Positions 21,083 to 52,957 of a stretch of 64,000 nucleotides of DNA are shown one piece after another; the stretch's first letter is position 1, and the number at the start of each line of letters is the position of its first letter. The translations under genes were made by a program, and so were the position numbers. Under the pieces are notes generated by a model. The model did not search any database, was not told the DNA's origin, and saw only the letters and a program-made list of their open reading frames with translations. The DNA lies in the NCBI GenBank assembly GCA_965216605.1, contig CBDCGG010000002.1, forward strand, positions 1,159,871-1,223,870, written 5' to 3'. The stretch comes from Alphaproteobacteria bacterium (GTDB lineage Bacteria > Pseudomonadota > Alphaproteobacteria > JABAAW01).

Positions 21083-21182
21083 TATAACAGGATAGGAATG
21101 TTGGAAATGTTGGGTATGTTGTCCGCGTTCGTTCGCGCTTCCTTACGGGCTCTCTCGCGTGGACAACGGATGGTGCGTGCTT

Positions 21183-21358
21183 ACTACACCCTCGCAAGCC
21201 AAAGGCTTGCGTATGGGGGGTGTGGGGGGACGAAGTTCCCCCGCAAAAACGCGCCGCGAGCGGGCGCGTTAGCGCCTTCTACGCGCGTAGCGCGTAGCCT
21301 CTTAATACTTAAAAGCGCGTTTCGCAGAAACGCGCAAGCAGCCTTGCGGTTTTACGAT
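21183..21358. repeat. Dispersed modular palindromic repeat, copy R1 (modules B+C, partial)
   Basis: ggggggtgtggggggacgaagttcccccgcaaaa...gcgccttctacgcgcgtagcgcgtagcctctta shared with at least 8 other loci. Confidence 0.75.
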
Positions 21359-21415
21359 GGTAAGAAACTTTGGTTTACATCATCGACTTGGGGAGGGTGG
21401 TGTTTTGCGGTTCTT

Positions 21416-22582
21416 TTGTTGGCAGGGGTTGTAATAATAGCAATTGTTTATCTTTCTTTAATTCCTAAAGATGCCGACACCATTAAGTACTTAGAACTTT
21501 ATGCGGTGATTGTCATTGGACTTATGTCTCTTTATATTGCAGGGTCGAGCTTTTGGGCAAAACAAGGCAGCGCGTTTTTTGTGGAATATCAAACAGCAAA
21601 GGATATGAATGTTGTTGACTTGTTTACATCTTCTAATATATTAGAAGATGCTATTGGCAATCCTGCAAACTCTACCATGCCTTATGTAAAAAGAATCTAC
21701 ATACGCAATGAAAAAAACAAACACGAGGCAATTAAAAGAATTTTATTGCAATTGCCAAACGAACAGACTCTTGTTTTAAAAGAATATAAAAAAGCCGACG
21801 CTCTTCTTATAAAGCCCTATGAAGCCAAGGTATTAAAATTAAATGCGGTAACATTTTATTTTAAGGAATATGACTTGACTCATGTAGGTAGAGGAAACTT
21901 TTTTTTTGATGATAATTTTGTGTATACTATTAAGGATGAAGAAATTCTTCGGAGCGGAAAAATTATTGTCGAAACAGCGCAAGGGCAGTCCTGTATTAAA
22001 AATAATAACAAGCCAATTTCATTTTGCAGCGAAAAGAATTTATTAAAACCAAGTAGATCTTTTTTTGGCATAACTTCCAGCGAACAAGAATTGACTTTTG
22101 GTTTTGATGTTATTTGTTCGCTAGAACTTTTAATGAAAAAAAATTTTGCTGACGATAAAATTTTTAATGACAGCATGCAAAAACAAATTTCTGAATATCC
22201 AAAAATAGCTGAAATGTTTTATAGGAGAGAAGGAGAATTGGCAATTCAAATAGTAATAAATTTATATAATAATATATCCTTATCATACTTTTTCCAAGCC
22301 CACAAAAAAAAATACACCTTACCTGTGCATGCAAATATAAAGAAAGAATTTTATGAGGCGTATAAAAAACATAAATTTTTTCCATTGCCAGCGGTGTTTG
22401 AAAAATCAAAAACCCAAAAAAACCGTATGTCTTTTTTTAATTTTTATTCTTTCTGTGATTCATGGGCAGAAAAAAAATGGGGAAAAAATAAAAGTAAAAT
22501 TTATAATTTTCCACAAGGATATTGCAACCAATTTGCTGTTTGCCAAAAAGAAACAAAAATCATCGACGACTTAAAACCTTAG
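21416..22582 (+). CDS. Hypothetical membrane-anchored protein on low-GC islet (island a); start uncertain
   Basis: About 30% GC over about 1.15 kb against a roughly 62% background. N-terminal TM helix (CFAVLLLAGVVIIAIVYLSLIP) and a second helix, then an about 330-aa K/N/F-rich globular part with no recognisable domain. The six-frame ORF start at 21098 runs through repeat R1 and is rejected; a TTG or internal ATG start is likely. Confidence 0.4.
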   Translation: MLAGVVIIAIVYLSLIPKDADTIKYLELYAVIVIGLMSLYIAGSSFWAKQGSAFFVEYQTAKDMNVVDLFTSSNILEDAIGNPANSTMPYVKRIYIRNEKNKHEAIKRILLQLPNEQTLVLKEYKKADALLIKPYEAKVLKLNAVTFYFKEYDLTHVGRGNFFFDDNFVYTIKDEEILRSGKIIVETAQGQSCIKNNNKPISFCSEKNLLKPSRSFFGITSSEQELTFGFDVICSLELLMKKNFADDKIFNDSMQKQISEYPKIAEMFYRREGELAIQIVINLYNNISLSYFFQAHKKKYTLPVHANIKKEFYEAYKKHKFFPLPAVFEKSKTQKNRMSFFNFYSFCDSWAEKKWGKNKSKIYNFPQGYCNQFAVCQKETKIIDDLKP

Positions 22583-22810
22583 CTCCTCGTCGTGTTGCGA
22601 GTCAGCTTGCGCACGGCAAGCCGTGCGCTTTTGAATAAGAGGCTACGCACTTCGCTTCGCTCGTGCGTAGATAAAGCGCTTACGCGCTCGCTCGCAGCGG
22701 GCTTTTTGCGGGGGGACTGCGTCCCCCCACGCCCCCCATGCGCAAAACTCACTTCGCCCAAAACTCATCTTAAGGCTCGCTCGTCTTGCGTTCTCCCGTC
22801 AATAATAAAA
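22583..22810. repeat. Dispersed modular repeat, copy R2 (inverted orientation; modules C+B)
   Basis: agtcagcttgcgcacggcaagccgtgcgcttttgaataagaggctacgca... ...ggggggactgcgtccccccacgcccccc, the reverse complement of the R1/R3 modules. Confidence 0.75.
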
Positions 22811-25774: not shown

Positions 25775-26045
25775 TAGGTTTTTTGTCTGTTGCGCTCGCG
25801 CTTGTGCTTTTTAAAGGCACGCGCTCGCGCAACAGATTTGCTTTGTATGATGACGGATGCAAAACATGCGCACGCGAAGCGTGCGCGGGGGGTGTGGGGG
25901 GATAAATTCCCCCCACGAAGACCCCGCGTCAGCGGGGGGAATTTGTCCCCTCGCGCACGCAGTGCGCTTTCTACACACTTTGCGCGAAGCGCAAAGTGTG
26001 TAGCCTCTTATTCAAAAGCGCACGGCTTGCCGTGCGCAAGCTGAC
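25775..26045. repeat. Dispersed modular repeat, copy R3 (modules A+B+C)
   Basis: gtctgttgcgctcgcgcttgtgctttttaaaggcacgcgctcgcgcaacaga... ggggggtgtggggggataaattccccccacgaagaccccgcgtcagcgg ...gtgtagcctcttattcaaaagcgcacggcttgccgtgcgcaagctgactc. Confidence 0.8.
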
Positions 26046-26138
26046 TCTTAACACGGTACAGCGTCTTTAATTTTGCCTAGAAAATAGAGACAAAAAAAAA
26101 TACGCAAGCACACACAAATCTGCTATACTCTCCCCATC

Positions 26139-29205: not shown

Positions 29206-29280
29206 GGGGGTTCCTCTTGGGGTGGGGTGAGGGGGGGTGTGGAGGCTTTTCTTTTAGCACAGAGAAGGGGGAGGAGTCTA

Positions 29281-29712
29281 TATTATTGACGCACACGGCA
29301 AGCCGTGCGCTATGCATGCTCGCGCAACAGACACGAGCTTTTTGTATTAAACGGCAAAACGCAAGACGAGCGAGCCGTAGGCGAAGTGAGTTTTGCGCAT
29401 GGGGGGTGTGGGGGGACGAAGTTCCCCCGCAAAAGACCCCGCGTCAGCGGAGCGCCATAGCACACGGCTTGCCGTGTGCGTCCATGATATGTTGGTGCGC
29501 CTTCTACGCGCGTAACCCGAAGGGTTACGCGCGTAGCCTCTTATTCAAAAGCGCGAGGCTTGCCTCGCGCAATACTGACTTTTAACATGGTAAGGCGATT
29601 CGAGTTTTCCTAGCCCTAGCGACAAAAAAAATCGCGCGCAGTGCGCCTCTTATTCAAAAGCGCGAGGCTTTGCCTCGCGCAAACTGACTCCTACCATGGC
29701 AGAGCAGCTTTG
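29281..29712. repeat. Dispersed modular repeat, copy R4 (composite: A'+B+C+C)
   Basis: Contains gcacggcaagccgtgcgc, ggggggtgtggggggacgaagttcccccgcaaaagaccccgcgtcagcgg, and two copies of cctcttattcaaaagcgcgaggcttgcctcgcgcaa(t/a)actgact. Confidence 0.8.
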
Positions 29713-29730: not shown

Positions 29731-32121
29731 CTATTTGTTTCCGCTTTTAAGAATAGCATCATAGAAAGTCTTGTCATGGTATTTTATCATTTTAAAAATT
29801 ATCTTTAAATTTTTCTGTAAATGCAAAAAACTTTCTGATGTTTTGGAGTGGCTGTCAGGATGAATGCGATCATTTAAATTCAGCACAATTGTTTCTACAG
29901 AAAATATTTCTGGATTTTTTTTCCAAAGACTACTTAAACTATTTACAAGAGATTTACCTTCTGCTTTCCAAATGTTCACATACATTTCTAGGAATGTCCT
30001 GACCATGTTGGGAGCGCTAATGCATTCGTCTTCGTTTATTACTTCAGCTTCCATAATGTCATGAAGTTTTTTAAACAAATAAGGAAACAAGGCAGAGCTA
30101 TTTTCTATTACCTTTGGCATTTTAATAAGTTTAGTTTTTAAGTTTACATCTTTTTCAAGCATATACAAAGAACATCCGTATTTTTTTGAGTCTTTGTTTA
30201 TTGGAGGTTGTTTAACCCAATAAATAACTCTTTCGAGAAAGTTTAAATCGTGTGTTAAGATAAAAACTTGCCTTGCTGAAGAAATTTTTTTTCTCATAGT
30301 AATAAACATACCATAAAAATTAATAGTATCAAGGCTGGACACAGGATCGTCGATAATAATTCTTGTGTTAGGAATTATAAATTTATTGCCTTGTTCGTCT
30401 GTTCTTTCAAGTGAAAAAAGAAAATACAAAAATACAATTACATTAATTTCCCCTTCACTTAAAGAATCCACACTGGCTTTTTTCTTATTTCTAAATATTT
30501 CATAGCCAGAAATTTTGCCGCCAGCTGCTTTCAGCTGCAACACGTTGTATCCGAAAAAATTATTTAATTCAGTATTAATTTTATTTGAAAATTCTAATAT
30601 ATTATACATTTTTTTTTCATTTTCAACAATACAACTTTCCATTTTTTCCATGGCAACATCAATTGTCTTCAATGGGCTGGTTTCCGAAAAATTATCTTCG
30701 CAAAGAAAGTTTATTTCTTCTATGTTTATACGATTTTTATAAAAATCTTTCATTCCCTCAGCGATTTTATGAGAAATTAGTTTTTTTCCTGCAATATTCA
30801 TTTTTTGTTCAATTTTAAGCTGGTTGTCATTGAATATTAAAATCATTCTATTGATTTTTTCTAATATTTCTTTCAGATACGTTTTGCTTTTATTTAATGT
30901 TTCAATAATAATAGGCGCGACATTTTTCTTTATGTATATTTGATTTTTCTTTGATTGTATTTTTTCTTTAAGATTGTCGATAGCATTCAAATAACCACTT
31001 ATTTTTTCTGAAAAATCAAGCTGAATTTTTTCTATTTCTACTTTTTGCCCTGAATCAAAAAAAGTAAAGTTATCTATATGAATTTTATAATGCGTAATTT
31101 TTTCTTTTTGCTGCTCAAGGCATGTAGAGTCATTTTCTAATTTTTGTATCAAAGCATTTGTGTCTGGATTGAAATGTTTTTTTAATTTATCAATTAATTG
31201 GGATGATATTGTATTTTCGCAAAATTCACATTTCTCTTTTTTGTCAGCGTGAATTTCCAATCCTAATTTTACCCAATTAGATACTGTGCCTTCCATATCC
31301 ATTACCCTTTTGTCGACTTCGCCTTCAGGTATAGAAGACAAGTGTTCTGCCATTTCGTCGTAGTTAATTTCTTCTGGATAGTAAATTTTATACATAGGGT
31401 TTTCTGATTTTCTGTCGATATCTTGCTCAAAATTAATATATTGTGTGTTGTCTAATATTTCGTTTTCTATTTTATCTTTAAAGCTATTTAAATCTCTATT
31501 CACTTTAGATTTTTCATAATTTGCAACATCAAGATTTTTTCCGTATTGCGTGCCTCTGAAAAATGTTTTAATGTTGACGGCTATGTTTTTCATGCACTCT
31601 TCGTAAATATATATTCGGATTTGCTTTAATTTTGCAATTTTTACTTTCAAGCTTCTATTAGCATCTAATAATTTTATTTGTGGCTCTCCTAGCATAATTT
31701 TTTTTATATTCTTCTCCTGAAGATTTTCTGGAAAAAAATTATCTTTAACATACTCTCTATCAAATAAAGCGATATGCTCATCTTCCGTTTCGTTTTTGTC
31801 GATTTCAAATTCAACTGAAAGTCCCATGTCTTTGTAATAATTTTCTTGCTCGTCATTTTTGTAAGAAAGCAAGCGTGAAAAAATTGTTTTTCCAACCCCG
31901 TTTAATCCAAAAATCACGTTGCGGTCTGAAAAATCAAAATTTTTACATGCGTTTTCGTTCCAAGAGAAGTCCCTAAAAACCCATTCAGTATCAGGAGCAC
32001 TACTGTATTTGCTGATAACTCCTTCATCGAGAGTAATTTTTTTTATCTTCCTCAACATTTTCTTTCTCCTCGCAAAGCGTTTTGCTTTCTTAGAAATAGC
32101 ACAAGTTTTTTCTCCTGTCAA
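29731..32121 (-). CDS. RloC-like anticodon nuclease / AAA_13-type ABC ATPase with Zn-hook coiled coil (low-GC island b)
   Basis: 796 aa at about 30% GC. Walker A NVIFGLNGVGKT near the N-terminus, a long coiled-coil insertion with CxxC (KEKCEFCENT) zinc-hook, Walker B/D-loop IIIDDPVSSLD, H-loop ILTHD, then an about 150-aa C-terminal domain (PrrC/RloC-like ACNase region). Confidence 0.6.
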   Translation of the reverse strand: MTGEKTCAISKKAKRFARRKKMLRKIKKITLDEGVISKYSSAPDTEWVFRDFSWNENACKNFDFSDRNVIFGLNGVGKTIFSRLLSYKNDEQENYYKDMGLSVEFEIDKNETEDEHIALFDREYVKDNFFPENLQEKNIKKIMLGEPQIKLLDANRSLKVKIAKLKQIRIYIYEECMKNIAVNIKTFFRGTQYGKNLDVANYEKSKVNRDLNSFKDKIENEILDNTQYINFEQDIDRKSENPMYKIYYPEEINYDEMAEHLSSIPEGEVDKRVMDMEGTVSNWVKLGLEIHADKKEKCEFCENTISSQLIDKLKKHFNPDTNALIQKLENDSTCLEQQKEKITHYKIHIDNFTFFDSGQKVEIEKIQLDFSEKISGYLNAIDNLKEKIQSKKNQIYIKKNVAPIIIETLNKSKTYLKEILEKINRMILIFNDNQLKIEQKMNIAGKKLISHKIAEGMKDFYKNRINIEEINFLCEDNFSETSPLKTIDVAMEKMESCIVENEKKMYNILEFSNKINTELNNFFGYNVLQLKAAGGKISGYEIFRNKKKASVDSLSEGEINVIVFLYFLFSLERTDEQGNKFIIPNTRIIIDDPVSSLDTINFYGMFITMRKKISSARQVFILTHDLNFLERVIYWVKQPPINKDSKKYGCSLYMLEKDVNLKTKLIKMPKVIENSSALFPYLFKKLHDIMEAEVINEDECISAPNMVRTFLEMYVNIWKAEGKSLVNSLSSLWKKNPEIFSVETIVLNLNDRIHPDSHSKTSESFLHLQKNLKIIFKMIKYHDKTFYDAILKSGNK

Positions 32122-34430: not shown

Positions 34431-34560
34431 GGGGTAGGGGAGTGGCGTGTCTGTTCGGCTTGCTTGCGCTACCTTGCGGGCGCGCTACGCAGGTTTGATG
34501 AAAAGTAAGCGCAGCCGGACACGGACTTCGTCGTGCATCGGCAGTTATATCCGTCAATAG
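34431..34560. repeat. Partial copy of dispersed repeat (R4b)
   Basis: gcttgcttgcgctaccttgcgggcgcgctacgcag is shared with 39640-39680. Confidence 0.5.
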
Positions 34561-36447: not shown

Positions 36448-36720
36448 GCGCTTAAGAGGCGCACTGTGTGCGTTCTTTTCTCCTTTAGGTGAGCGGGAAA
36501 CAGGATCGCCGTGCCGTGTTACGAGTCAGCTTGCGCATTGCTTCGCAATGCGCTTTTGAATAAAAGGCTACGCCCTTCGCGCTTCGCGCGAAGGGCGTAG
36601 ATAAAGCGCGCTTGCGTGCGCGTGTTTTGCGCCCGTCATCGTACAAAGCCCGTTACAATTTTTGTCGTTGCGCAGCGCGCCCGTAAGGAAGCGCAAGCAA
36701 GCAACGACAAAAAAACACAA
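36448..36720. repeat. Dispersed modular repeat, copy R5 (inverted orientation; modules C+A-like)
   Basis: agtcagcttgcgcattgcttcgcaatgcgcttttgaataaaaggctacgcccttcgcgcttcgcgcgaagggcgtag... tgttttgcgcccgtcatcgtacaaagcccg. Confidence 0.75.
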
Positions 36721-36826
36721 GCGCGAACGCAACAGACACACCACGCCCCCGTAAAGTTATCCCCGAAGTTATTCCTTTTCTATTAAGCCCCTCATCCTCC
36801 CATATTTTTTCCTCTATACTGCGCCC

Positions 36827-39611: not shown

Positions 39612-40110
39612 GCGCGCTTGCTTGTGTGTTGAGCGTGTTTGTCTCTGCTTGCTTGCGCTACCTTGCGGGCGCGCTACGCAGAGACAGACACGCGCTTTTT
39701 TGATTAGGGCTGTGCTGTGGATTTTTGTTTTTGTGGTGTGTATCTGGTTTTGTTTGTCTGTTGCGTTCGCGCTTGTGCTTTTTAATGGCACGCGCTTACG
39801 CAACAGACTTGCTTTGTATATTGACGGATGCAAAACATCGTGCGCGTAGCGCACGGGGAGCGCGAGGGAGTAATCCCTCGCAAAAGACCCCGCGTCAGCG
39901 GGGCGCGATAGCGCCTTCTACGCGCGTAGCGCGTAGCCTCTTATTCAAAAGCGCGAGGCTTGCCTCGCGCAAGCTGACTCGTAACATTGTACGGCGATTC
40001 TGTTTTCCGCTCACCTAGAGACAAAAAGAATCGCACGAAGTGCGCCTCTTATTCAAAAGCGCGAGGCTTGCCTCGCGCAAGCTGACTCGCAACGCGACAC
40101 AGTGCTACTA
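39605..40110. repeat. Dispersed modular repeat, copy R6 (largest composite: A+B+C+C)
   Basis: All three modules present. Module C is duplicated (39925-39975 and 40045-40095) with gcgcgaggcttgcctcgcgcaagctgactcg. Confidence 0.8.
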
Positions 40111-40121
40111 TTTTTTAAAAA

Positions 40122-40802
40122 TCATTCAATATCTATTCCTTTTGTTTTTATTTTTTTTGCTAGTTCTTGACCTTTCTCAATTTGTTCTTCATTCAAGGAT
40201 TTTTTTAAATCTTCTTTTTTTTGAATTGCCATTTTATGCCCTGAAGAAGAGGCAAGCAGAAACATCGCATAAGATAGAAGAATGCTTTGTTTAATAGTTC
40301 CTTTCCCACTATAAAAAATGATTCCTAAATTATATTGTGCGTCAGCGCATCCTTGATTTGCAGATTTTTTATACCACTTAAATGCTTCTTTGTAATCCTC
40401 GACTGTTTGCTCCCCTCTTTCATACATTTTGCCTAAATCGTTTTGTGCTTGAGCATGTCCTTTTTTGGCTGCTTTCTCAAGCCAAAAAAACGCTTCGCTA
40501 TTATCGTTTGCTACCCCGTCTTCTGTTTTACTCCTTAAACTTAATTGGTGTTGAGATTCTGAATCACCATCATCTGCACTACGCTTTAGATTTCTTAGTT
40601 GCTTTTTCTTTTCATTAATTCTCTCCTCTTCTTCACGCTTAGAATTATACGAAAGACAAAAACAATAAAGAGCAATAGCAAAAAACACAAAAAAAGCTGG
40701 ATCCTCTTCTAAACCAAGGATTCCAAAAAAAATCGTCAGAGAGCCTGAAATATACATTTCTTGTAAATCTGTTCGAGAATTTATATTTTGTTTGCTATCC
40801 AT
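40122..40802 (-). CDS. Sel1-like repeat (SLR) protein with N-terminal transmembrane helices (low-GC island c, gene 2)
   Basis: At least two Sel1 repeats (…AQNDLGKMYERGEQTVEDYKEAFKWYKKSANQGCADAQYNLGIIFYSGKG…) preceded by two hydrophobic helices. Start MDSKQNI overlaps the upstream gene stop by 8 nt. Confidence 0.6.
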   Translation of the reverse strand: MDSKQNINSRTDLQEMYISGSLTIFFGILGLEEDPAFFVFFAIALYCFCLSYNSKREEEERINEKKKQLRNLKRSADDGDSESQHQLSLRSKTEDGVANDNSEAFFWLEKAAKKGHAQAQNDLGKMYERGEQTVEDYKEAFKWYKKSANQGCADAQYNLGIIFYSGKGTIKQSILLSYAMFLLASSSGHKMAIQKKEDLKKSLNEEQIEKGQELAKKIKTKGIDIE

Positions 40803-41775
40803 TATCGTCCCGAAGATCCATAAGGCTTTTTCCCTTATAATACCAATAATAAGGACCTCTAACATTACTGAGCTCTCGTTCTTTTTTTGTTAAAACTTCT
40901 CCCGCCGCAGCTGATAAAGTCATTTCTCTACCTTCATAAATAATTTTTTTTCTGCTTTTGTTTGTATCGCTTTCTGGGGCAACAGTGCAGGTTGTATTTT
41001 CGTCGTCAAGGAAAATTAATTTTTCCCCATCTTTTATTTCCACCATATTAAAATTAAAATTTTCAATATTTCTTCTTTCTTTTTCTTGCGCGTTGCCGAC
41101 ATTTTTTTTCTCGTCTTCGTTTTCAGCAATGTATTCATTTTTTATTGTAACTGGCTCATGCGCTAAATTTAACAATGCAGGTCGAGCGTCTTCAGGGGAC
41201 ATTTCAAAAAATTCTCTGCTCTTGTTAATTATTTTTTCCTTAAATTTTTCATGCAAATAGTTTTCTGCTTTATTGCAATCTTTCACTTTTATTGCACAGT
41301 CGAATTCAAAACGAAGAGGAACGCCCGTAGCACTAGAAAGAGCGTTTATTCTCTTCTCTACGCTGTCTGTCGTTTTTCCTATCTTGATAAGACCTTTCAT
41401 ACGAGGATTGGTGAGAATATAAACTATTCCTTCTCGTTCGTTTTTCAAGGAGTCTTGCGTCTCTTTTTCTTTACTTTCAAGTCTCTCTTTACGTTGTTGC
41501 AGGATTTCATCTTCGTACAACCAATTCAAAAGCGGTGCAAAACTTCCACGAATCTCTGTGTCGCGAATCACGCTGTAGATGTAATTCGTTAACTCGGTGA
41601 TTTTTCTACTTTCATCTTCGATGTCTCCAAATTCATACCTTACGGCTCGTTCACCATCTAAAACCACGCAAGTATGGTTTATATTCTCTTTGTGATAAAG
41701 CCTTGCACCCACTGGAATTTTCAATCCATCGAAGGTGAAGATTTTTTTGGTGGGTGTTTTTTCTATTTCAGTCAT
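40795..41775 (-). CDS. T5orf172 (MUG113, GIY-YIG-like) domain protein with flanking DUF4357-like modules (low-GC island c, gene 1)
   Basis: Central motif EGIVYILTNPRMKGLIKIGKTTDSVEKRINALSSATGVPLRFEFD. The N- and C-terminal about 50-aa modules resemble each other (…FDGLKIPVGARLYHKEN…VRYEFGDI / …IKDGEKLIFLDDEN…IIYEGREMTLSAAAGEVL…). Confidence 0.6.
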   Translation of the reverse strand: MTEIEKTPTKKIFTFDGLKIPVGARLYHKENINHTCVVLDGERAVRYEFGDIEDESRKITELTNYIYSVIRDTEIRGSFAPLLNWLYEDEILQQRKERLESKEKETQDSLKNEREGIVYILTNPRMKGLIKIGKTTDSVEKRINALSSATGVPLRFEFDCAIKVKDCNKAENYLHEKFKEKIINKSREFFEMSPEDARPALLNLAHEPVTIKNEYIAENEDEKKNVGNAQEKERRNIENFNFNMVEIKDGEKLIFLDDENTTCTVAPESDTNKSRKKIIYEGREMTLSAAAGEVLTKKERELSNVRGPYYWYYKGKSLMDLRDDNG

Positions 41776-43132: not shown

Positions 43133-44086
43133 ATGTCGAGACTCTGGAGCAAACTGCGTAAAAATCCCTTCGGTATCCACGCCGCGGTGAGCTCAGCAGA
43201 AACGCCCGCGAAGATCTCGGTGCGCGGTTTGGATAAATCGTTCGAGGGTAAACCCGTCCTCAAGGGTATCGATCTGGAAATAGAACGCGGCGAATCGATG
43301 GCAATCGTCGGACGCTCAGGCGAAGGTAAGTCTGTTCTCATCAAATGCATACTCGGACTGCTCACCCCCGACAAAGGCGAAATCCTCATCGACGGACACT
43401 CGCTAGCAAGCGAAGAAGGCGAGGCATTGCGCTCGACCATCGGTATCGTCTTCCAAGGCGGTGCGCTCTTCGACAGCATGAATGTCTGGCAGAATGTCGC
43501 CTTTCGTCTGCTACAACAAGGCACGAGCAAGCGCGAAGCCTCGCGTCGAGCATTGCAATGCTTGGACGCCGTCGAACTTCCCGCTCGTATCGCAGAACTA
43601 GATCCCAGCGAGCTGTCGGGAGGCATGCGTAAGCGCGTCGCCATCGCGCGCACGATGGCATCCGAACCCGATGTGTTGTTCTTCGACGAGCCAACCAGCG
43701 GGCTAGATCCCATCACAACCGATCTGATCAACGAGCTGATCGTCAATTGCACCAAGTCGCTGGGAGCAACCGCGATCACGATCACTCACGACATGAGTAG
43801 CGTCTATAAAACAGCAGACCGTGCCGCCCTCCTTTTCGACGGCAAACTCGTGTGGCAAGGCAGCAAGCGCGCCATGGCAAGCAGCAAAGATGCCTATGTG
43901 CGCCAGTTCGTTCAAGGCAAGGCGCAAGGTCCGATGACACGAGCTAGCGGTCAACCCCTCGACGGAGACAAGGATGGAGGCTTGGAGAAAAACAAGGACT
44001 CAAACAGCGGACAAGATAATGACGAAGACAACGATAAGGACAACGACCAAGATAACGCCGAAGACAACTATATCGCATCGGTATGA
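43133..44086 (+). CDS. mlaF: Phospholipid ABC transporter ATPase MlaF with D/N-rich C-terminal tail
   Basis: Walker A GRSGEGKSV, signature LSGGMRKRV, Walker B LFFDEPTSGLD. A C-terminal about 50-aa tract DKDGGLEKNKDSNSGQDNDEDNDKDNDQDNAEDN follows. Confidence 0.8.
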   Translation: MSRLWSKLRKNPFGIHAAVSSAETPAKISVRGLDKSFEGKPVLKGIDLEIERGESMAIVGRSGEGKSVLIKCILGLLTPDKGEILIDGHSLASEEGEALRSTIGIVFQGGALFDSMNVWQNVAFRLLQQGTSKREASRRALQCLDAVELPARIAELDPSELSGGMRKRVAIARTMASEPDVLFFDEPTSGLDPITTDLINELIVNCTKSLGATAITITHDMSSVYKTADRAALLFDGKLVWQGSKRAMASSKDAYVRQFVQGKAQGPMTRASGQPLDGDKDGGLEKNKDSNSGQDNDEDNDKDNDQDNAEDNYIASV

Positions 44087-45753: not shown

Positions 45754-46268
45754 CACAACAATTTCTCTTTTCATCTCTATTCGTCGATCTCCTCGTTTTG
45801 GGCTTTATCTTCAGCTCGGGTATGCTGTCGCGGGGAAAGCGTTTTACTGGTGAGTTATGCCAGCTGTTGGCTTGGTTGGGCGCGCTCGGATTGCTCTACC
45901 TCGCCTATACCTACTCGGCACAGATATTCGGTGCCTTCTTCGACGACCGCAAGGTGATGTTGTTGTTTGTGGCGGGAGGGCTGTTTATCGGAATCTTTGC
46001 GGCTCTCTTCATCTTGACAGGCATGCTCGCGCGCGCTTTGCAGCGTTATGTCGCAGGGCGTCTCGATCGGATATTAGGGCTGCTCTACGGCGTTGCTCGC
46101 GGTGTCGTGATCGTTTGCGTCCTGTTGGGCTTCCTGAAAACCTACGGCGGAACGAACGCTCTGCCCGTGCAGATCACGCAAAGCGTCACTGCTCCATACC
46201 TGCTGCCTCTGACCGACTGGGCATGGGGATTTATGAGCGACATGCCGTGGGGAGGGCAGGCTTTGTGA
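45750..46268 (+). CDS. cvpA: CvpA-family membrane protein
   Basis: Four TM helices with the CvpA pattern. Conserved cvpA-purF synteny. Confidence 0.7.
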   Translation: MTQQFLFSSLFVDLLVLGFIFSSGMLSRGKRFTGELCQLLAWLGALGLLYLAYTYSAQIFGAFFDDRKVMLLFVAGGLFIGIFAALFILTGMLARALQRYVAGRLDRILGLLYGVARGVVIVCVLLGFLKTYGGTNALPVQITQSVTAPYLLPLTDWAWGFMSDMPWGGQAL

Positions 46269-46300
46269 GCGTCGCACCTCCTCTGTCGCTTCCTCCATCT

Positions 46301-47977
46301 ATGGACTCGCAGGAGGCGGCAGACAGCGATGTGTTGCGCGAGGCTTGCGGCATCTTCGGCATTATCGGCAGCTTTGATGCCGCAGAGCAGACGGCGTTGG
46401 GCTTGCATGCTTTGCAGCATCGCGGTCAGGACGGTTGCGGCATCGTTTCGTACGACGGGCGTTACTTTCGGGCGGAGCGCGCCTTGGGGCTGGTCGGCGA
46501 CAGCTTGGCGAAGCGCGAGAAGATCGAGCGTCTGCATGGCGTGCTGGCATTGGGGCATAATCGCTATGCGACCAGCGGCGTTGCCAAGGATTTAACGAAT
46601 GTACAGCCTATGTTTGCCGAGTTGGATATTGGCGGCGTGGCTTTGGCGCACAACGGCAACTTCACGAATGGATTGAGCTTGCGTAAAAAGTTGGTGGCGG
46701 AGGGGAGTATTTTTCAGTCGCACTCCGATTCAGAGGTGTTGATACATTTGCTGGCGCGTGCGCGCGGCTCTCTGACAGAGAGGTTGCTGTCGGCGTTGGG
46801 CGAGTTGCGCGGGGGGTTTGCCATCGCCTTGCTTGCCAAGGATATGCTGATAGGCTTGCGCGATCCGCATGGCTTGCGTCCGTTGCTGTTGGGCAGTACG
46901 CGCGACGGCGGCGTGATCGTTACATCCGAATCGTGCGCGTTGGACATCATCGATGCCGAGTATCGACGCGAGATCGCACCAGGCGAGATTGTGGTCTTCT
47001 CGTTGCGGCGCTCGCGTGGGCTTGTCGAGGCGCGCTCGTTCTTTGGCGATAGGAGAGGGCAGGCTAAAAAAGACGACAACTCAAAAAACAAGAACGAGCA
47101 GGGCAAGGAGAAGAAAAAGCTGTTTTGCGCTTCCAAGCGTTTCGCTGCTCCTGTTGCTCGTCGTTCGTGCGTCTTCGAGCATATCTATTTTTCGCGTCCC
47201 GATTCACTCGTCGCCTCAAGTCCGCCGAACGGCGCGGAGAAGGGTAATGGTAGAGGGCAAGGTAGAGGTCGAGATAATGGCAATGGCAAGGAGAAGGAGG
47301 AGGTGTTGAAACGCTCGATCTATCAGGTGCGCAAGCGTCTAGGTGCGGTGTTGGCGGAGGAGGCGGTAGGATCGTTGCCTGCTTGCGACTGCGTCGTTCC
47401 TATTCCTGATTCGGGCGTTGCCGCGGCACTGGGCTTTGCTGAGGGGTTGGGGCTGCCCATAGATTTTGCAATCATCCGCAACCACTATGTAGGACGCACC
47501 TTCATCGAGCCTCAACAGGAGATCCGTCATTTCGGCGTGCGCTTGAAGCACAACGCGGACAAGGCGTTGTTGCGCGGCAAGCGCGTTGTGTTGATTGACG
47601 ATTCGTTGGTAAGGGGGACCACTTCTCGCAAGATCATTGCATTGGTGAGACAAGCGGGAGCGTTGGAGGTTCATATGCGTATTGCGTCTCCTCCGATAAC
47701 GCATCCGTGCCACTACGGGGTAGATACGCCTGAGCGAGACGAGTTGTTGGCGGCTCGATTGTCGGCAAAGCAGATGGCTAAGCATATCGGTTGCGACTCG
47801 TTGGCGTTTCTTTCGGCGGGAGGATTGTATCGGGCTTTGGAGGGGTGCGAGGGCGGAGATGCAGAGGGCGGGGGGTGGTGTAGTGCTTGCTTTACGGGGG
47901 TGTATCCTGTTGAGTTGATCGACGAGGAGTTTGGCAAGGCTGCTTATGGACAATTGAGTTTGTTGGCGAGGGAGTGA
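46301..47977 (+). CDS. purF: Amidophosphoribosyltransferase PurF (with short propeptide and low-complexity insertions)
   Basis: Nucleophile Cys in ...REACGIFGIIGS after a 15-aa leader. PRTase motif VVLIDDSLVRGTTS. Inserts GQAKKDDNSKNKNEQGKEKKK and GNGRGQGRGRDNGNGKEKEE. The six-frame ORF from 45857 is over-extended. Confidence 0.85.
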   Translation: MDSQEAADSDVLREACGIFGIIGSFDAAEQTALGLHALQHRGQDGCGIVSYDGRYFRAERALGLVGDSLAKREKIERLHGVLALGHNRYATSGVAKDLTNVQPMFAELDIGGVALAHNGNFTNGLSLRKKLVAEGSIFQSHSDSEVLIHLLARARGSLTERLLSALGELRGGFAIALLAKDMLIGLRDPHGLRPLLLGSTRDGGVIVTSESCALDIIDAEYRREIAPGEIVVFSLRRSRGLVEARSFFGDRRGQAKKDDNSKNKNEQGKEKKKLFCASKRFAAPVARRSCVFEHIYFSRPDSLVASSPPNGAEKGNGRGQGRGRDNGNGKEKEEVLKRSIYQVRKRLGAVLAEEAVGSLPACDCVVPIPDSGVAAALGFAEGLGLPIDFAIIRNHYVGRTFIEPQQEIRHFGVRLKHNADKALLRGKRVVLIDDSLVRGTTSRKIIALVRQAGALEVHMRIASPPITHPCHYGVDTPERDELLAARLSAKQMAKHIGCDSLAFLSAGGLYRALEGCEGGDAEGGGWCSACFTGVYPVELIDEEFGKAAYGQLSLLARE

Positions 47978-47984
47978 TTCTTTT

Positions 47985-48791
47985 GTGAAAGAGTCGAAGG
48001 AGTTGAAAGAGTTGAAGGAGTTGAAGGGGTTGGAGGGCTTGCGATTGTTGTTGACGGGTGCTTCGAGGGGTTTGGGCAGGGCATTGGCGATGAGCTTTGC
48101 AGAGCGAGGGGTGAGGCTGATCTTAACGGGGCGCACGCAGGGGGGGCTGGCAGAGGTATCGAAGGAGATTGTAGAAAGGGGGTTTCCTGCTCCTGTGGTT
48201 GTTGCCTTGGATTTACGAGAGGGGACAGAGAAAGGCGCAGAGGGAGGCTCTGATACGGGGACGGGAGGAGGGAGTAGAATAGAGTTATTGGGGGGAATGA
48301 TTGCGGAGCGGATCGGGGGATTGGAGGGAATTATTTTGAATGCGGCGTTATTGGGGGAGTTATCTCCTGTTGCGCATGGGGATGGGGATATGTGGAGGGA
48401 GGTATTTGATGTGAATGTGTTTGCTAATCGGAAATTAATAGAGAGTGTGCATGGATTGTTGTGTATGTCGGGGGGTTTTGTTATTGGGGTTACTTGTGGG
48501 GAGAAGCGGGGTGGAGCTTATTGGGGATGTTATGGGGCTTCTAAGGCGGCGATGGAGGTTATGTTGGAGAGTTATGGGAGGGAGTGTGAGAAGTTAGGTA
48601 TAAGTGTTGCGTGTTGGGATCCGGGGAGGATGTCTACGGGGTTGCGGGGTAGTGCGTATCCGGGTGAATCTGTGGGCAAGGAGGGGGAGAATAATAATGG
48701 GAAGTATCCGATAACGGGGGAGACTGGTAGGGGCTGTGTAGAGATTGTGGAGGAGTGGGTTAGACGGAGGCGGGAGGGGGGAGGTAGTTAG
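47985..48791 (+). CDS. Short-chain dehydrogenase/reductase (SDR) family oxidoreductase
   Basis: TGASRGLGRA cofactor motif and catalytic YGASKAA. Coding strand C-depleted. Confidence 0.7.
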   Translation: MKESKELKELKELKGLEGLRLLLTGASRGLGRALAMSFAERGVRLILTGRTQGGLAEVSKEIVERGFPAPVVVALDLREGTEKGAEGGSDTGTGGGSRIELLGGMIAERIGGLEGIILNAALLGELSPVAHGDGDMWREVFDVNVFANRKLIESVHGLLCMSGGFVIGVTCGEKRGGAYWGCYGASKAAMEVMLESYGRECEKLGISVACWDPGRMSTGLRGSAYPGESVGKEGENNNGKYPITGETGRGCVEIVEEWVRRRREGGGS

Positions 48792-48843
48792 TTGCTTGTG
48801 CTTTTGCGTTTTTTGAGAGGGGGGTAGTTTATGTTTGTTTGCC

Positions 48844-50112
48844 TTACTCCTCATTCGCTTTTTTAATAGCGGCTACAATAGCAATTTTGGTCGCGTGAAC
48901 CCATTCGTGTCTATTGTCAAAGTTGGCATGAATATATTTTTCAATTTCTCTATATTTTTTTGTTTTGAGGGAATATTCTAACTTATACGCTCGATCGGGA
49001 TCGGATGTTTGATAGGAATTCAGTCGTTGTGTTACATCTCTTGCAATGCCAACTTTATAAATATCAGGAAAAGCAGGATTCGATATAATGTAGATATAAC
49101 CTGAATCTCTATCGACGGTGGTAGTATCGGTTGGCTTTGGCGGATCAGTAAGAAAATTAGGCTCTTTTCTAAAAATATCGGTAGGAACTTCTTTATCTAA
49201 TCGCGCCCTTATAAAATCAAACGCTTTCGCTCCTACATCTATGCCTATCCATTCTCGCCCTAATTTCTCGGCTGCCACACAAGTTGTAGCGCAGCCACAA
49301 AACGGATCCAACACCATGTCCCCCTCGTTGCTACTTGTTTTTATAATGCGTTCCATTAACGCAAGCGGTTTTTGAGTTCGGTAACCTGTTTTTTCGTCGG
49401 CTATGCCTTGAATAAATGGAATTTTAAAAACATTGTCTGATTTTCCTTCTTTAAGATACGCTTTACGAACTACCCCGTTCTTATCATGGTATGTTTTAAA
49501 TTTTTGACCCTCCTCGTCTGTCTTGTTGTAGCGTTTAACAGACTTCTCATCATACTTAAAAAAAGTTTCTTTATAGTTAAAGATGTATTTATCTCCTTTC
49601 GTATAGAAAAAAATGTTGTCATAATTTTTAGGGTAATTGACCTTTCCTCCATGTGGCTTGAAATAATGCCAGATAATTTCATTTTTAAACGATTTTTCTC
49701 CAAAAGCTATATCCAATATAATCTTAAGATAATGGCTCATTGTTTGATCGCAATGCAGATACAAACTTCCAGTATCTTTTAATACTCGATGGCATTCAAT
49801 AAGTCGTATAGCCATATAAATTAAATAACAGTAATTCATTTCACTGCTAAACTGCTTTACTTCGCAAAGGTATTGAAAAAGCTTAGGGTTTTCAAATTCG
49901 ATGAATTTCACCCATTCATCCTTAATATCTTCTTTTCTAAATATATCCTTAAACCCAGCTCCCTGAGCACTGCTTTCAATTGGCGAGACATATTCTTCGT
50001 TGGTGTTAAACGGCGGGTCAAGATAAATAAGGTCGATGCAATCTGAATTGATACCCTCAAGAATATCAAGGTTATCCCTGCAGAAAATTGTACGAGACTT
50101 TACATTAAGCAT
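48844..50112 (-). CDS. Orphan beta-class N6-adenine DNA methyltransferase fused to C-terminal T5orf172/GIY-YIG-like domain (low-GC island d)
   Basis: Motif IV IDLIYLDPPFN precedes motif I VLDPFCGCATTCVAAEKLGREWIGID (beta-class order). C-terminal SGYIYIISNPAFPDIYKVGIARDVTQRLNSYQTSDP...NRHEWVHA is a T5orf172 motif. About 32% GC. No restriction-enzyme neighbour. Confidence 0.7.
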   Translation of the reverse strand: MLNVKSRTIFCRDNLDILEGINSDCIDLIYLDPPFNTNEEYVSPIESSAQGAGFKDIFRKEDIKDEWVKFIEFENPKLFQYLCEVKQFSSEMNYCYLIYMAIRLIECHRVLKDTGSLYLHCDQTMSHYLKIILDIAFGEKSFKNEIIWHYFKPHGGKVNYPKNYDNIFFYTKGDKYIFNYKETFFKYDEKSVKRYNKTDEEGQKFKTYHDKNGVVRKAYLKEGKSDNVFKIPFIQGIADEKTGYRTQKPLALMERIIKTSSNEGDMVLDPFCGCATTCVAAEKLGREWIGIDVGAKAFDFIRARLDKEVPTDIFRKEPNFLTDPPKPTDTTTVDRDSGYIYIISNPAFPDIYKVGIARDVTQRLNSYQTSDPDRAYKLEYSLKTKKYREIEKYIHANFDNRHEWVHATKIAIVAAIKKANEE

Positions 50113-50224
50113 GAGTTGAAGCCCAAATAAAATACGACCAATAACTAATTCACGCCAAAAGTAGACTTTTCTAGCGGTTTGTCAATAAAAAAATACGCTT
50201 TTATACAATTTTGCTAGAAATCAG

Positions 50225-50420
50225 CACCGTCAAGCAAACAGCCCTCTCGTACCCCCCACCCCCCCCGCGCACGCCATAGCGCGTTGCTTGCAACGCGCGT
50301 ACATGATGTTGCTAGCGTGCGCATGTTTTGCATCCGTCATAATACAAAGCCCGTCTGTTGCGTGAGCGCGTGCCTTTAAAAAGCACAAGCGCGAGCGCAA
50401 CAGACAAGACAAGGCCAGAC
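50225..50420. repeat. Dispersed modular repeat, copy R7 (inverted orientation; modules B-like+A)
   Basis: ccccccaccccccccgcgcacgccatagcgcg...atgttttgcatccgtcataatacaaagcccgtctgttgcgtgagcgcgtgcctttaaaaagcacaagcgcgagcgcaacagac is the reverse complement of module A. Confidence 0.75.
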
Positions 50421-50493: not shown

Positions 50494-51045
50494 CTACTTC
50501 CTCCGCAGCCCCAGCCCCTCCCCCTGTCCCGCAACTGCCTCCAATTCCGCACACCCCGCACGCATCCCCTCAATAATATCCCCAATCCCACTCGGATACT
50601 CCTCAACACGCCGTGTCCGCAAATTCACATATCCGTAAATCCACTCCGAAATCGCCGCAATATAATCTCCCTCGCTACCGCCCTCATCCCTCGCATAATG
50701 CAACCACAAAACATGAAACAATTTCCCGTTCGCTCCCAATACCCTCCCCTCAAACGATAACCGATAACCCTCCCTTACCTCCCGCCGATACCTTATCTGC
50801 GTCTCTAATGTGAAAAAGGAAGCCCCAACCCGTTCCCGATACTCCCCGTCAATACCCATCTCCTCCAACAAAGAAAACGAAGCATCCGACGCGCTAGAAA
50901 TATACCACGCAACATTCATATGTCCGTTCGCATCTAAAGACTCGCGCCCCACAATCCCACCCCCAACCCGAAATGGATAGGACAACTGCTCGCTCACGCG
51001 CCCGCGCTCCGCTGCCTCAACAAACGACGAGCCTCCGCAAGACAC
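50494..51045 (-). CDS. 4HBT/YbgC-type hotdog-fold acyl-CoA thioesterase (true start probably internal)
   Basis: …SLDANGHMNVAWYISSASDA… matches the DxNxHxNN hotdog motif. The N-terminal about 25 aa overlap the upstream ORF and are probably not translated. Confidence 0.5.
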   Translation of the reverse strand: MSCGGSSFVEAAERGRVSEQLSYPFRVGGGIVGRESLDANGHMNVAWYISSASDASFSLLEEMGIDGEYRERVGASFFTLETQIRYRREVREGYRLSFEGRVLGANGKLFHVLWLHYARDEGGSEGDYIAAISEWIYGYVNLRTRRVEEYPSGIGDIIEGMRAGCAELEAVAGQGEGLGLRRK

Positions 51046-51374
51046 CCCGCCCGATCATCCACAAAATTTCGAGAAATCCACCACGACTCAACCTCTCCTA
51101 ATAATTTTCCCATCTGCACTCCCGCCTCAAGACCTTCCTCCCCCAAAATATCGCGCCCTCGCAGAGGAAAAAAAGGTCGCTCCAAACCCTTGAGCATACG
51201 CCACATCTCCCCCAACTTCTTTCGTTTCTCTGCCCCTGAATCTCCTGTGGGCATCGCCTCCTCCATCGCCGCGGCTACAACAATCTTATCCTCGACAACA
51301 ACGCGATCCTCCTCATACAGCAGCCGCAACAACCCCTCGCGCGAAGAAGGCAGAGCGTCCTCCGCCATCGTCAA
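50994..51374 (-). CDS. Hypothetical protein resembling the C-terminal tail of class II CCA-adding/poly(A) polymerase enzymes
   Basis: …FFPLRGRDILGEEGLEAGVQMGKLLGEVESWWISRNF… resembles the conserved C-terminal segment of bacterial CCA enzymes. No nucleotidyltransferase head is present, so it is a possible remnant. Confidence 0.25.
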   Translation of the reverse strand: MTMAEDALPSSREGLLRLLYEEDRVVVEDKIVVAAAMEEAMPTGDSGAEKRKKLGEMWRMLKGLERPFFPLRGRDILGEEGLEAGVQMGKLLGEVESWWISRNFVDDRAGCLAEARRLLRQRSAGA

Positions 51375-52129
51375 TCTTCCTGCTTCGCAGACTTCTTGGA
51401 CGACTTCTTAACAGATTTCTCGGATTCCTTCTTCGATGCCTTCTGGGTTTTCTCGTCTTGCTTATCTGCAAGTTTGGTCTCGAAGTTGTCTTCTTGGCTT
51501 TTTTCAGAATCTTGCGCCTTTTCCTCCGAGGACTCTAGTTTTTCCTCTAGTTTTTCCTCTGCTTTTTCTTCTTTAGTTTTTTTAGCGGGCTTTGCCTCTT
51601 TTCGCGTTTCTGCCTTGTTTGCTTCTCGTTCGGCGTTCTGTCGGGCTTGCTCTCGTTTGAGCGCCTGTCGCTTGGCTTCGTCCTCGCTGGGTGCAACGTT
51701 GATGTTGACGGCGACAGGAACTTCGGGGTGTAGGCGCACAGGCACAGCGAAAATTCCCGTCGAGCGCACAGGCTCTTCCAGCGTGACGAACTTCTTGCTG
51801 ATGATCGTTTGCAACTGTTGTTCGATCGCTTCTGCGATGTCCTGAGGTCGGACCGAGCCGTAAAGATGTCCGCTTTCGCCTGCGGCTCGCACTAAGATCA
51901 CCTCTTTTCCGTCGAGTTTTTGTTGTACTGTCTCAGCTTCGGCTTTTCGGGCTTGGTCTCTGGTGTCGATTTGTATCTGTTCTTTTTTGGCGCGTTTTCG
52001 ATTCTCTACGGTGGCGAGCATGGCTTTACCTTGTGGCAGCAGCCAGTTGCGGGCGTAGCCTCGTTTGACCGAAACCTCGCTACCCGGAGCACCCAGATTG
52101 TCGATGCGCTCTAGCAGGATCACTTGCAT
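51371..52129 (-). CDS. rplI: 50S ribosomal protein L9 with about 100-aa K/E-rich C-terminal extension
   Basis: MQVILLERIDNLGAPGSEVSVKRGYARNWLLPQGKA... is canonical L9. The tail …EREANKAETRKEAKPAKKTKEEKAEEKLEEKLESSEEKAQDSEKSQED… is non-canonical. Confidence 0.8.
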   Translation of the reverse strand: MQVILLERIDNLGAPGSEVSVKRGYARNWLLPQGKAMLATVENRKRAKKEQIQIDTRDQARKAEAETVQQKLDGKEVILVRAAGESGHLYGSVRPQDIAEAIEQQLQTIISKKFVTLEEPVRSTGIFAVPVRLHPEVPVAVNINVAPSEDEAKRQALKREQARQNAEREANKAETRKEAKPAKKTKEEKAEEKLEEKLESSEEKAQDSEKSQEDNFETKLADKQDEKTQKASKKESEKSVKKSSKKSAKQED

Positions 52130-52142
52130 AGCTAGAACTCCG

Positions 52143-52487
52143 TCAGCGTGCGATGTAGGGCAGCAGCGCGAGGTAGCGCGCGCGTTTGACGGCAGCAGCA
52201 AGCTCGCGTTGTTTCTTGCGCGAAACGCCTGAGAGGCGGGCAGGAATAATCTTCCCTCTTTCCGAGATATAGCGTTGCAGCAAGGCGATATCTTTGTAAT
52301 CGATGACGGGCGCGCCTTCGCCAGAGAGCGGGCAGATCCTTCTGCGAGAGAAGCGGCGGATGCGCACCACGGGCGAGCGCAGATCCGTAGAGGAAGAGCT
52401 GTTTGCGTCCTCGCCTTCGTCTTTGTCCGCGCTTTCGTTTTGGCTTTCGTCTTTGTTGTCGTCAGACGGATTTTCTTCGGCGGTCAT
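52143..52487 (-). CDS. rpsR: 30S ribosomal protein S18 with about 35-aa acidic N-terminal extension
   Basis: S18 core …[68 protein letters not shown]… preceded by [33 protein letters not shown]. Confidence 0.85.
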
Positions 52488-52957
52488 GATTTTTCATCGG
52501 TGTCGTTGGTTTCCGAATCTTTGTCTTCCTGCGCGTCGTCTGTCGAGGGGGTTTCGCGTGAGGTTTCGCTTGTTCGGCGTTCGCCGGTTCGAGTTGGAGT
52601 TGGAGATGGAGATGTTGTTTCTTGGTCGCGGTGCGCCTGAGCGGCGGCAATAGGGGTGGGTTGGGTTTCGGGTTGCGCTGTTTTGATGGTAAGAAGTCGG
52701 AGCAGGTCTTCGTTGAGGGCGAGGACGCGTTGCATTTCTTGGGTTGTTTCGGACAAGTTCGAGTGGTTGATGATGAAATAGTGTCCTTTGCGATTCTTGC
52801 GAATCGGATAGGCGAGGGTTCGTAGCCCCCAGGATTCGGCTCTGTCGATGGTTGCCTTGGCTGCCTTGAGGTCTTTTTGCGTCTTCGAGGCGATGCTCTC
52901 GGCTTGGCTGTTGGAGAGGTCTTGGCGTAGGATGAGAACGGTTTCGTAGTGGGGCAT
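52484..52957 (-). CDS. rpsF: 30S ribosomal protein S6 with long acidic/Thr-Pro-rich C-terminal tail
   Basis: [54 protein letters not shown]... S6 core, then an about 55-aa disordered tail. Confidence 0.8.

Follow-up and report, generated by a model that had tools for sequence, protein, structure and literature searches.

A methylase-T5orf172 fusion protein of an alphaproteobacterium and its relatives as candidate single-chain restriction-modification enzymes

In a 64,000-nucleotide (nt) stretch of an alphaproteobacterial genome, here called the window (contig CBDCGG010000002.1 of assembly GCA_965216605.1, positions 1,159,871 to 1,223,870), an uninterrupted open reading frame (ORF) of the minus strand, 48844..50112, encodes a DNA methylase whose C-terminus carries a T5orf172 domain. 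The question raised by this locus is whether such a protein is a methylase with an appendage or a restriction and a modification enzyme contained in a single chain. Based on its sequence, its relatives and predicted structures, we give roughly even credence to the view that it is a compact single-polypeptide restriction-modification enzyme, horizontally acquired into a defence hot spot.

Domain architecture and exchangeable parts of the fusion

In the Pfam scan, residues 26-299 match N6_N4_Mtase (PF01555; E 6.6e-46, 157.5 bits against a cut-off of 26.7) and residues 338-405 match T5orf172 (PF10544; E 5.5e-11, 43.3 bits against a cut-off of 20), both curated thresholds being passed, and the C-terminal domain is also matched by the MUG113 model (31.3 bits, cut-off 22.3). 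The methylase motifs are intact, and motif IV (DPPF) lies upstream of motif I (FCGCATT) with a variable segment between them, which is the circularly permuted order of the beta class (Table 1). Judging from the DPPF motif and the best structural matches, N6-adenine rather than N4-cytosine is the probable target of methylation. No separate nuclease gene is found within 5 kb of the ORF, and the classical two-gene type II layout, with an endonuclease gene adjacent to the methylase gene, is absent. Accordingly, the original prediction, made from the letters alone, was right in assigning a beta-class methylase, a C-terminal T5orf172/GIY-YIG-like domain and the lack of a cognate endonuclease on either side.

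Table 1. Coordinates and conservation of the fusion protein, its islet and the dispersed repeats (window coordinates unless a related genome is named; identity is the mean pairwise value among 45 family members)
Feature	Coordinates	Strand	Mean identity	Basis or remark
Methylase-T5orf172 fusion protein, full ORF, 422 amino acids (aa)	48844..50112	-		same architecture in all 120 best homologues
Beta-class N6_N4 DNA methyltransferase module, residues 1-310	49183..50112	-		Pfam PF01555, 6.6e-46
N-terminal methylase core			69%	
Catalytic motif IV DPPF, residues 32-35	50008..50019	-		checked in translation
Hypervariable central segment, residues 150-238, putative target-recognition domain	49399..49665	-	28%	identity profile
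C-terminal methylase core			76%	
S-adenosylmethionine (AdoMet)-binding motif I FCGCATT, residues 271-277	49282..49302	-		checked in translation
Linker, residues 311-337, with conserved P.(R/P)TD element	49102..49182	-	35%	precedes T5orf172 or HNH alike in relatives
T5orf172/GIY-YIG-like nuclease domain (predicted), residues 338-422	48847..49101	-	58%	Pfam PF10544, 5.5e-11
Islet low in guanine plus cytosine (G+C), 36%, single gene between SDR and 4HBT genes	48792..50229	.		G+C profile, ORF calls
Dispersed host repeat on the 4HBT side of the islet	50230..50420	.		hairpin at 50353-50405
Further repeat modules, window	21207-22745; 29280-29690; 39616-40114 (copy at 39743-39838)			borders of low-G+C islets
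More repeat copies, window	25783-26047 (25783-25901), 34440-34492, 36610-36738			
Repeat copies, related genome L085	6865-7034 and 9105-9294			

Conservation was assessed in 45 family members, for both pairwise identity and residue invariance, and in a second alignment (A2) of 20 T5orf172 domains of the family together with a T5orf172 paralogue of the window assigned to PDC-S57. Across the 45 homologues no variation is seen in D32, P33, P34 and F35 of motif IV or from F271 to C278 in motif I, and the degeneracy of these motifs, which the original prediction had named as a possible objection, is thus not observed. In the T5orf172 domain, Y341, K353, G355, R363, R374, E391, H395 and E403 are invariant in A2, while R374 and E403 are at least 90% conserved, not invariant, in the wider 45-sequence alignment. 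With Y341, R363 and E391 invariant and E403 at 90% or above, Tyr, Arg and Glu are kept where a GIY-YIG active site would have them. The ratio of nonsynonymous to synonymous substitution rates (dN/dS) between the window copy and an 85%-identical copy in another genome (L001; related loci are designated by L numbers) is 0.068 for the whole protein and 0.091 for the T5orf172 domain; the fusion gene is under strong purifying selection and is intact in two strains.

The AlphaFold (AF2) model of the whole protein has a mean predicted local distance difference test score (pLDDT) of 87.9 and a predicted template modelling score of 0.84. The best Foldseek matches of the methylase part are the N6-adenine methylases CcrM, M.BceJIV, M.MboIIA and M.RsrI (E 1e-16 to 6e-19), which swamped the comparison of the full-length model with the PDB and made it uninformative on the C-terminal domain, and for this reason the latter was modelled separately (pLDDT 90). 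Most of the top ranks obtained with this domain model against the PDB are GIY-YIG proteins, namely Slx1, BH0048, EF2693, HIGLE and UvrC, with E of 0.1 or worse and template modelling (TM) scores of 0.42-0.64; the Slx1 match has a probability of 0.98, a TM score of 0.61 and an E of about 0.1. Against predicted viral models the same domain matches T5orf172 proteins with E of 1.8e-8 and TM scores of 0.80-0.86, its closest structural relatives being small free-standing T5orf172 proteins of T5-like phages.

In order to judge whether the C-terminal domain is likely to cut DNA, the most telling comparison is with relatives that carry a different domain at the same place. Among the ORFs of the related loci, 56 combine the methylase with T5orf172 and 42 combine it with HNH, and the HNH forms share both the methylase and the P.RTD linker with the T5orf172 forms. 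Their HNH motif, C..C...DH(I/V)...GG...N(L/I)QLLC..CN..K, is typical, and in the L040 copy the assignment is supported by Pfam (4.7e-14). The occurrence of two unrelated nuclease folds in one slot points to a nuclease function rather than to DNA binding alone, and we regard it as the strongest argument available at the sequence level for a DNA-cutting C-terminal domain. A further nine ORFs or so consist of the methylase only, and in L029, L052 and L077 a frameshift separates the nuclease part from an otherwise intact methylase; since the nuclease fragment follows in another frame, these disruptions are recent, and such decay is consistent with a costly nuclease.

The central segment is the other part that changes from copy to copy, and it does so most clearly in tandem arrays. 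In one metagenome-assembled contig (loci L003-L005; ENA ERZ25069764 ctg6703, about 218-232 kb) there is a head-to-tail series of at least nine full-length copies, most neighbours being separated by a conserved spacer of 44 nt, with two truncated copies and two Methyltransf_11 genes interleaved in the L003 array and no separate endonuclease gene between the array copies. The encoded proteins are near-identical outside the central segment; at the nucleotide level, as analysed for L004, most scaffold identities are 0.83-0.94, and those of the central segment drop to 0.19-0.4. Likewise, an independent array of six copies in a Flammeovirgaceae genome (L018, 3867-12314) has values of 0.91-1.00 and 0.0-0.4, respectively. 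More arrays are found in L011, L029, L024, L013 and L039, and the HNH forms are also arrayed, with five copies in L040 (5082-12164) and three in L047. Those of L003-L005, L018, L011, L029, L040 and L047 belong to independent lineages. Since the scaffolds are near-identical and the central segments unrelated, the central segment would act as an exchangeable recognition cassette, and such diversification appears to be of the kind expected of defence specificity.

Distribution of the family and its linkage to IS1595

In a collection of 5.8 billion proteins, the two-domain fusion is shared by all 120 best matches, with identities of 48-61% save for two closer copies at 99% and 85%. The former (L002) comes from another assembly of the same organism and occupies the corresponding site there, whereas the latter (L001) is from a different genome, where it is flanked by polysaccharide-synthesis genes and is again a solitary low-G+C gene. 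A recent transfer of a defined unit between the window and L001 was considered and dropped, since the nucleotide similarity ends within the ORF and dS is about 1.15. No NCBIfam model names the fusion protein; its best matches there, YhdJ (112.8 against a cut-off of 292) and CcrM (73.9 against 830), fall far under the equivalog cut-offs. No published description of the fusion family was found in the full-text literature open to search, which included few subscription journals and did not include REBASE. The protein belongs to a large, apparently unstudied family.

A scan of GTDB with one genome per species returned 573 relatives, and the locus-level counts given here refer to the best 79 of these. 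The 79 loci are spread over Gamma- and Alphaproteobacteria, Spirochaetia, Bacteroidota, Chloroflexota, Poribacteria, Latescibacterota and one Nitrosopumilaceae archaeon. Many record titles of the related genomes name sponge lineages (Poribacteria, Poriferihabitans), and other bin names presumably come from sponge and coral studies; as read from record names, without a habitat control, the family appears mostly in sponge-type (sponge and coral) symbiont genomes. A search of 1.84 billion representative sequences was made with a profile of 214 positions derived from A2, many of the best matches being PDC-S57-like because A2 included the long PDC-S57 paralogue. Of ten matches inspected with Pfam, seven were PF01555 fusions or fragments; among the eight whose match was confined to the T5orf172 part, at or near their own C-terminus, seven were such fusions. 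One protein from this search (P0189, 274 aa) contains both T5orf172 and HNH domains and could be either a fragment or a hybrid that combines the two types of nuclease.

The sole recurrent neighbour over the 79 loci is an IS1595-family transposase (DDE_Tnp_IS1595 plus zinc ribbon), which adjoins the gene in 22 of them, namely in 9 of the 34 with T5orf172 and in 13 of the remaining 45. As a rule it precedes the gene by 5-100 nt in the same orientation. In two cases the limits of the mobile unit can be drawn: in L015 (about 6933-9723) the transposase and its methylase-nuclease passenger lie between terminal inverted repeats beginning GGGAATTAT, with an 8-bp duplication AAAATTTT, and in L057 (about 6297-9237) between inverted repeats with the same beginning and a direct duplication of 7-8 bp, AAAAATA. 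The repeats and target duplications which bound these units indicate that each was transposed as a whole, as a "transporter IS", i.e. an insertion sequence (IS) with a passenger gene. This concept came with the IS1595 family (Siguier 2009, as cited in PMC3129680), and in PMC2853133 the same family paper is among four references given for IS-flanked restriction-modification systems and solitary methylase genes. The relatives therefore resemble the IS1595 transporter elements in having a transposase, one passenger, inverted repeats and duplications, whereas the window copy differs: no transposase remnants were found by tblastn with the transposases (E above 0.7), and no IS end of the GGGAATTAT type was found at the borders of the gene. 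Its own arrival was nevertheless probably horizontal.

The site in the window

The G+C content of the ORF is 36%, against 55-58% in both flanks. It is bordered by an SDR gene (47985-48791, plus strand), of which the sole named homologues of the protein are from Kiloniellales, Rhodospirillales and Acetobacteraceae (35-40% identity), and on the other side by the dispersed repeat and then a 4HBT thioesterase gene (50494-51045, minus strand). Scans of the whole window for tRNA genes and for Rfam families at the gathering threshold gave no match, which excludes a tRNA-linked integration, and counts of promoter and terminator consensus sequences around the gene did not exceed shuffled expectation. 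In a related genome with the same gene order and about 82% nucleotide identity (L085), the SDR-4HBT interval holds, in place of the methylase, a gene of 33% G+C for a 601-aa GmrSD_N/HEC-05 protein; a clean empty site was not found, L085 offering the only alternative cargo.

Other islets of the window are of a similar nature. A second T5orf172 domain on a low-G+C islet, which the original prediction had pointed out, is indeed present: ORF 40795..41775 (minus strand, 326 aa) matches T5orf172 in Pfam (2e-18) and PDC-S57 in PADLOC (6e-68), but its domain shares just 26% identity with that of the fusion protein, the two falling into different families. The islet in which it lies (40122-41775, minus strand) also encodes a Sel1-repeat protein of 247 aa. 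In L002, a strain about 99% identical to that of the window, this islet is swapped for a gene of 33% G+C encoding a 233-aa HNH_2 endonuclease (16373-17074), and since the bordering repeat is kept while the cargo differs, turnover of cargo takes place at strain level. The islet at 29731-32121 (minus strand, 28-30% G+C) consists of a single gene for a 796-aa AAA_13 protein with a PADLOC match to PDC-S06 (4e-87); PDC-S06 and PDC-S57 being candidate defence families of PADLOC, this is another single-gene defence islet. Given the GmrSD-type gene at the same site in L085, the other defence islets and the swap in L002, the SDR-4HBT site is one of several replaceable slots for defence genes. In a fourth islet, of about 40% G+C, an ORF of 494 aa (21098-22582, plus strand) has no Pfam or PADLOC match, and its true start is probably later than annotated, as its N-terminus crosses a repeat module.

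G+C-rich dispersed repeat modules border each of the four low-G+C islets noted in the window and are also found without cargo. The 21-22 kb islet lies between inverted copies (21207-21249 and 22703-22745, 43 nt, 91% identity), and in L085 the GmrSD-type gene is bracketed in the order A-B-[gene]-B'-A' by inverted repeats of 88 and 63 nt (95%), while the methylase islet has no partner repeat on its SDR side. Repeat-bordered islets of this kind resemble mobile insertion cassettes, i.e. non-autonomous, repeat-bounded passenger genes. The host genome is itself unusual and probably that of a divergent alphaproteobacterium, with a strong G/C skew of coding strands (up to about 0.6) and with charged insertions or tails of low complexity, in which D, E, K and N abound, in housekeeping proteins, namely an ABC ATPase, PurF and the ribosomal proteins L9, S18 and S6 (ORFs with such segments include 43133-44086, 45857-47977, 51371-52201 and 52143-52957).

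Possible function and competing explanations

Based on these observations we may hypothesize how the protein would work as a restriction-modification enzyme. The N-terminal beta-class methylase, by means of the variable central domain, would recognise a short DNA sequence and add a methyl group to the N6 position of an adenine in it, so that the host chromosome would be marked as self. The C-terminal T5orf172 (GIY-YIG-type) domain, which is predicted to have no recognition module of its own and would be tethered by the linker of about 27 residues, would then cut or nick DNA when the methylase module engages an unmethylated site, e.g. in incoming phage DNA. A single recognition domain would thus serve both methylation and restriction, as one recognition domain can in the MmeI family, and a swap of this domain would shift both specificities together, which would explain arrays whose members differ only there. 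The family would travel elsewhere as a passenger of IS1595-family transposons, the window copy being held, without a transposase, in an intergenic defence hot spot. The original prediction had also offered a single-polypeptide, modification-dependent system; its first half fits the evidence, while for the second half the reading proposed here is instead that of an ordinary enzyme cutting unmodified DNA. At the level of the family, and with somewhat more reserve, we tentatively propose a class of single-chain restriction-modification enzymes, so far unrecognised and very small (about 420 aa), in which a beta-class adenine methylase would be combined with a plug-in C-terminal nuclease (GIY-YIG/T5orf172 or HNH) and specificity would be reprogrammed by cassette exchange of a recognition domain of 85 residues. 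The genes would be stockpiled in tandem arrays and carried by IS1595 elements from one bacterial phylum to another, and to one archaeal genome at least.

Single-chain restriction-modification is a known kind of system, of which the layout described here would be a new variant, that of a beta-class methylase with a C-terminal T5orf172 or HNH domain. The type IIG/IIC enzymes of the MmeI family, BpuSI and Eco57I are about 900-1000 aa long, with an N-terminal PD-(D/E)XK nuclease and a gamma-class methylase. The present protein would be like them in having a nuclease, an N6-adenine methylase and one recognition domain per chain, in evolving its specificity by change or exchange of the recognition domain and in standing alone without a partner gene; it differs in its length of 422 aa, its beta-class methylase, its C-terminal GIY-YIG-type nuclease (HNH in relatives) and in that its activity is predicted. 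Membership in the type IIG/IIL (MmeI-like) family is ruled out by nuclease type, methylase class and domain order, and the protein would be type IIC only in the broad sense that both catalytic domains appear to be present in one chain. The solitary beta-class methylases CcrM, M.BceJIV and YhdJ have the same fold and motif order and provide the best structural and sequence matches for residues 1-310, but they lack a nuclease domain, are conserved in specificity and have regulatory roles. The GIY-YIG type II enzymes Eco29kI, Cfr42I and Hpy188I have their own sequence recognition and separate methylases of a different class.

Precedents for parts of the proposed mechanism can also be found. In Odn (Gp88) of vibriophage ICP1 a C-terminal T5orf172 domain is steered by an unrelated, borrowed N-terminal DNA-recognition domain, and the protein is a proven site-directed nuclease whose catalysis requires a conserved Glu, an E180A substitution being inactivating; in contrast to the present protein, its recognition module is a RepA_N origin-binding domain, and it is phage-encoded and used against a satellite (PMC8263062). 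For Eco29kI, the restriction (R) and methylase (M) genes were fused by engineering, so that a GIY-YIG nuclease is likewise joined to a methylase, and the title of that work reports a fully functional, albeit artificial, hybrid polypeptide (PMC3039593). In the dnmA-yeeB-yeeC locus of Bacillus subtilis an N6-adenine methylase is linked to a T5orf172/GIY-YIG protein in a defence-type neighbourhood, but there as three separate genes, including a helicase, with an unfused methylase of a different class (PMC9973331).

Several points weigh against the proposed enzyme. The resemblance of the C-terminal domain model to solved GIY-YIG nucleases is weak (E about 0.1), and a profile of the C-terminal sequence run against PDB sequences found no solved relative, its one match (Dlp-1, E 0.22) being spurious. 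Because of this weak match, R363 and E391/E403 can be equated only tentatively with the Arg and Glu (R27 and E75) that I-TevI uses in catalysis. Known single-chain restriction-modification enzymes are laid out differently, and none of them, to our knowledge, is a direct precedent for a beta-class form of 420 aa. T5orf172 was originally described and annotated as a DNA-binding domain. The risk that such an enzyme would kill a naive host on arrival also speaks against it. Furthermore, a domesticated endonuclease of a phage satellite is described as tuning phage gene expression (PMC8096241).

The last-named example and the early annotation as a DNA-binding domain, together with the solitary position of the gene and the weak structural match, would also suit an orphan, regulatory or merely protective methylase, with T5orf172 as a non-catalytic appendage for DNA binding or protein interaction. 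We consider this rather doubtful, as the Tyr, Arg and Glu expected of a GIY-YIG catalytic site vary little or not at all, the domain that takes the place of T5orf172 in relatives is an HNH domain whose catalytic motif is intact, and regulatory orphan methylases are normally conserved in specificity and not diversified in arrays. Slightly less doubtful, though still unlikely, is a selfish mobile module, which overlaps with the proposed defence enzyme in mechanism and differs in what is selected: the gene would be an addiction or stabilisation cassette of a transposon or islet, or a homing-type nuclease with its own methylase immunity, and phage defence would be a by-product. The transposase adjoining the gene in 22 of 79 loci, the whole transposase-methylase units bounded by GGGAATTAT inverted repeats with target duplications (L015 and L057), and the spread over many phyla agree with this, as does the nuclease domain itself, which in structure comes closest to free-standing T5orf172 proteins of T5-like phages, such proteins being regarded in phage ICP1 as putative homing endonucleases (PMC8263062). 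However, the window copy has no transposase, IS1595-type inverted repeats or remnants of these, it is kept intact in two strains under strong purifying selection, and addiction alone hardly explains arrays of diversified specificities.

Two further explanations had been put forward in the original prediction, and neither has fared well. That of a phage-derived anti-restriction or epigenetic methylase, which we take here as one left by a prophage and shielding phage DNA from host restriction, could draw on a methylase core which is 35-38% identical to many phage methylases and matches phrog_67. We hold it to be very improbable, since the fusion occurs in none of 50,697 phage genomes, 72,556 plasmids or the best 80 IMG/VR loci: no phage or plasmid covers at least 80% of the protein, no IMG/VR locus among these 80 reaches into the T5orf172 part, the best coverage among the records examined is at most 75%, and the nuclease part is covered by none of them. 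Moreover, no phage genes, integrase or tRNA gene are found near what is a one-gene islet. The other proposal, in which T5orf172 would target or move the repeat modules as part of a dispersed-repeat process, could draw on a window whose low-G+C islets abut repeats and carry T5orf172 domains in two cases, and it is in our view scarcely credible. The repeats are dispersed host elements which border several unrelated low-G+C genes, defence genes among them (AAA_13/PDC-S06, the ORF without a match, GmrSD in L085 and HNH_2 in L002), and occur cargo-free as well. Moreover, members of the family are found in dozens of genomes from other phyla, where these repeats are not necessarily present.

For the window, the proposed restriction-modification enzyme would account for one of several low-G+C islets, which would be a defence gene lodged at a hot spot with replaceable contents. 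The main interest lies nonetheless at the level of the family, in the interchange of nucleases, the arrays of recognition cassettes, the carriage by transposons and the spread among habitats. Should the nuclease prove active, with its action coupled to that of the methylase, these proteins would represent the smallest known layout of a complete restriction-modification enzyme, with one exchangeable recognition cassette, and their arrays, in which near-identical scaffolds carry unrelated recognition domains, would be a clear case of diversification of defence specificity as well as a natural specificity library, useful for the discovery and engineering of enzymes. The apparent concentration in sponge-type symbionts over many phyla, together with the linkage to transposons, would make the family a tractable marker of gene flow and phage pressure in animal-associated communities.

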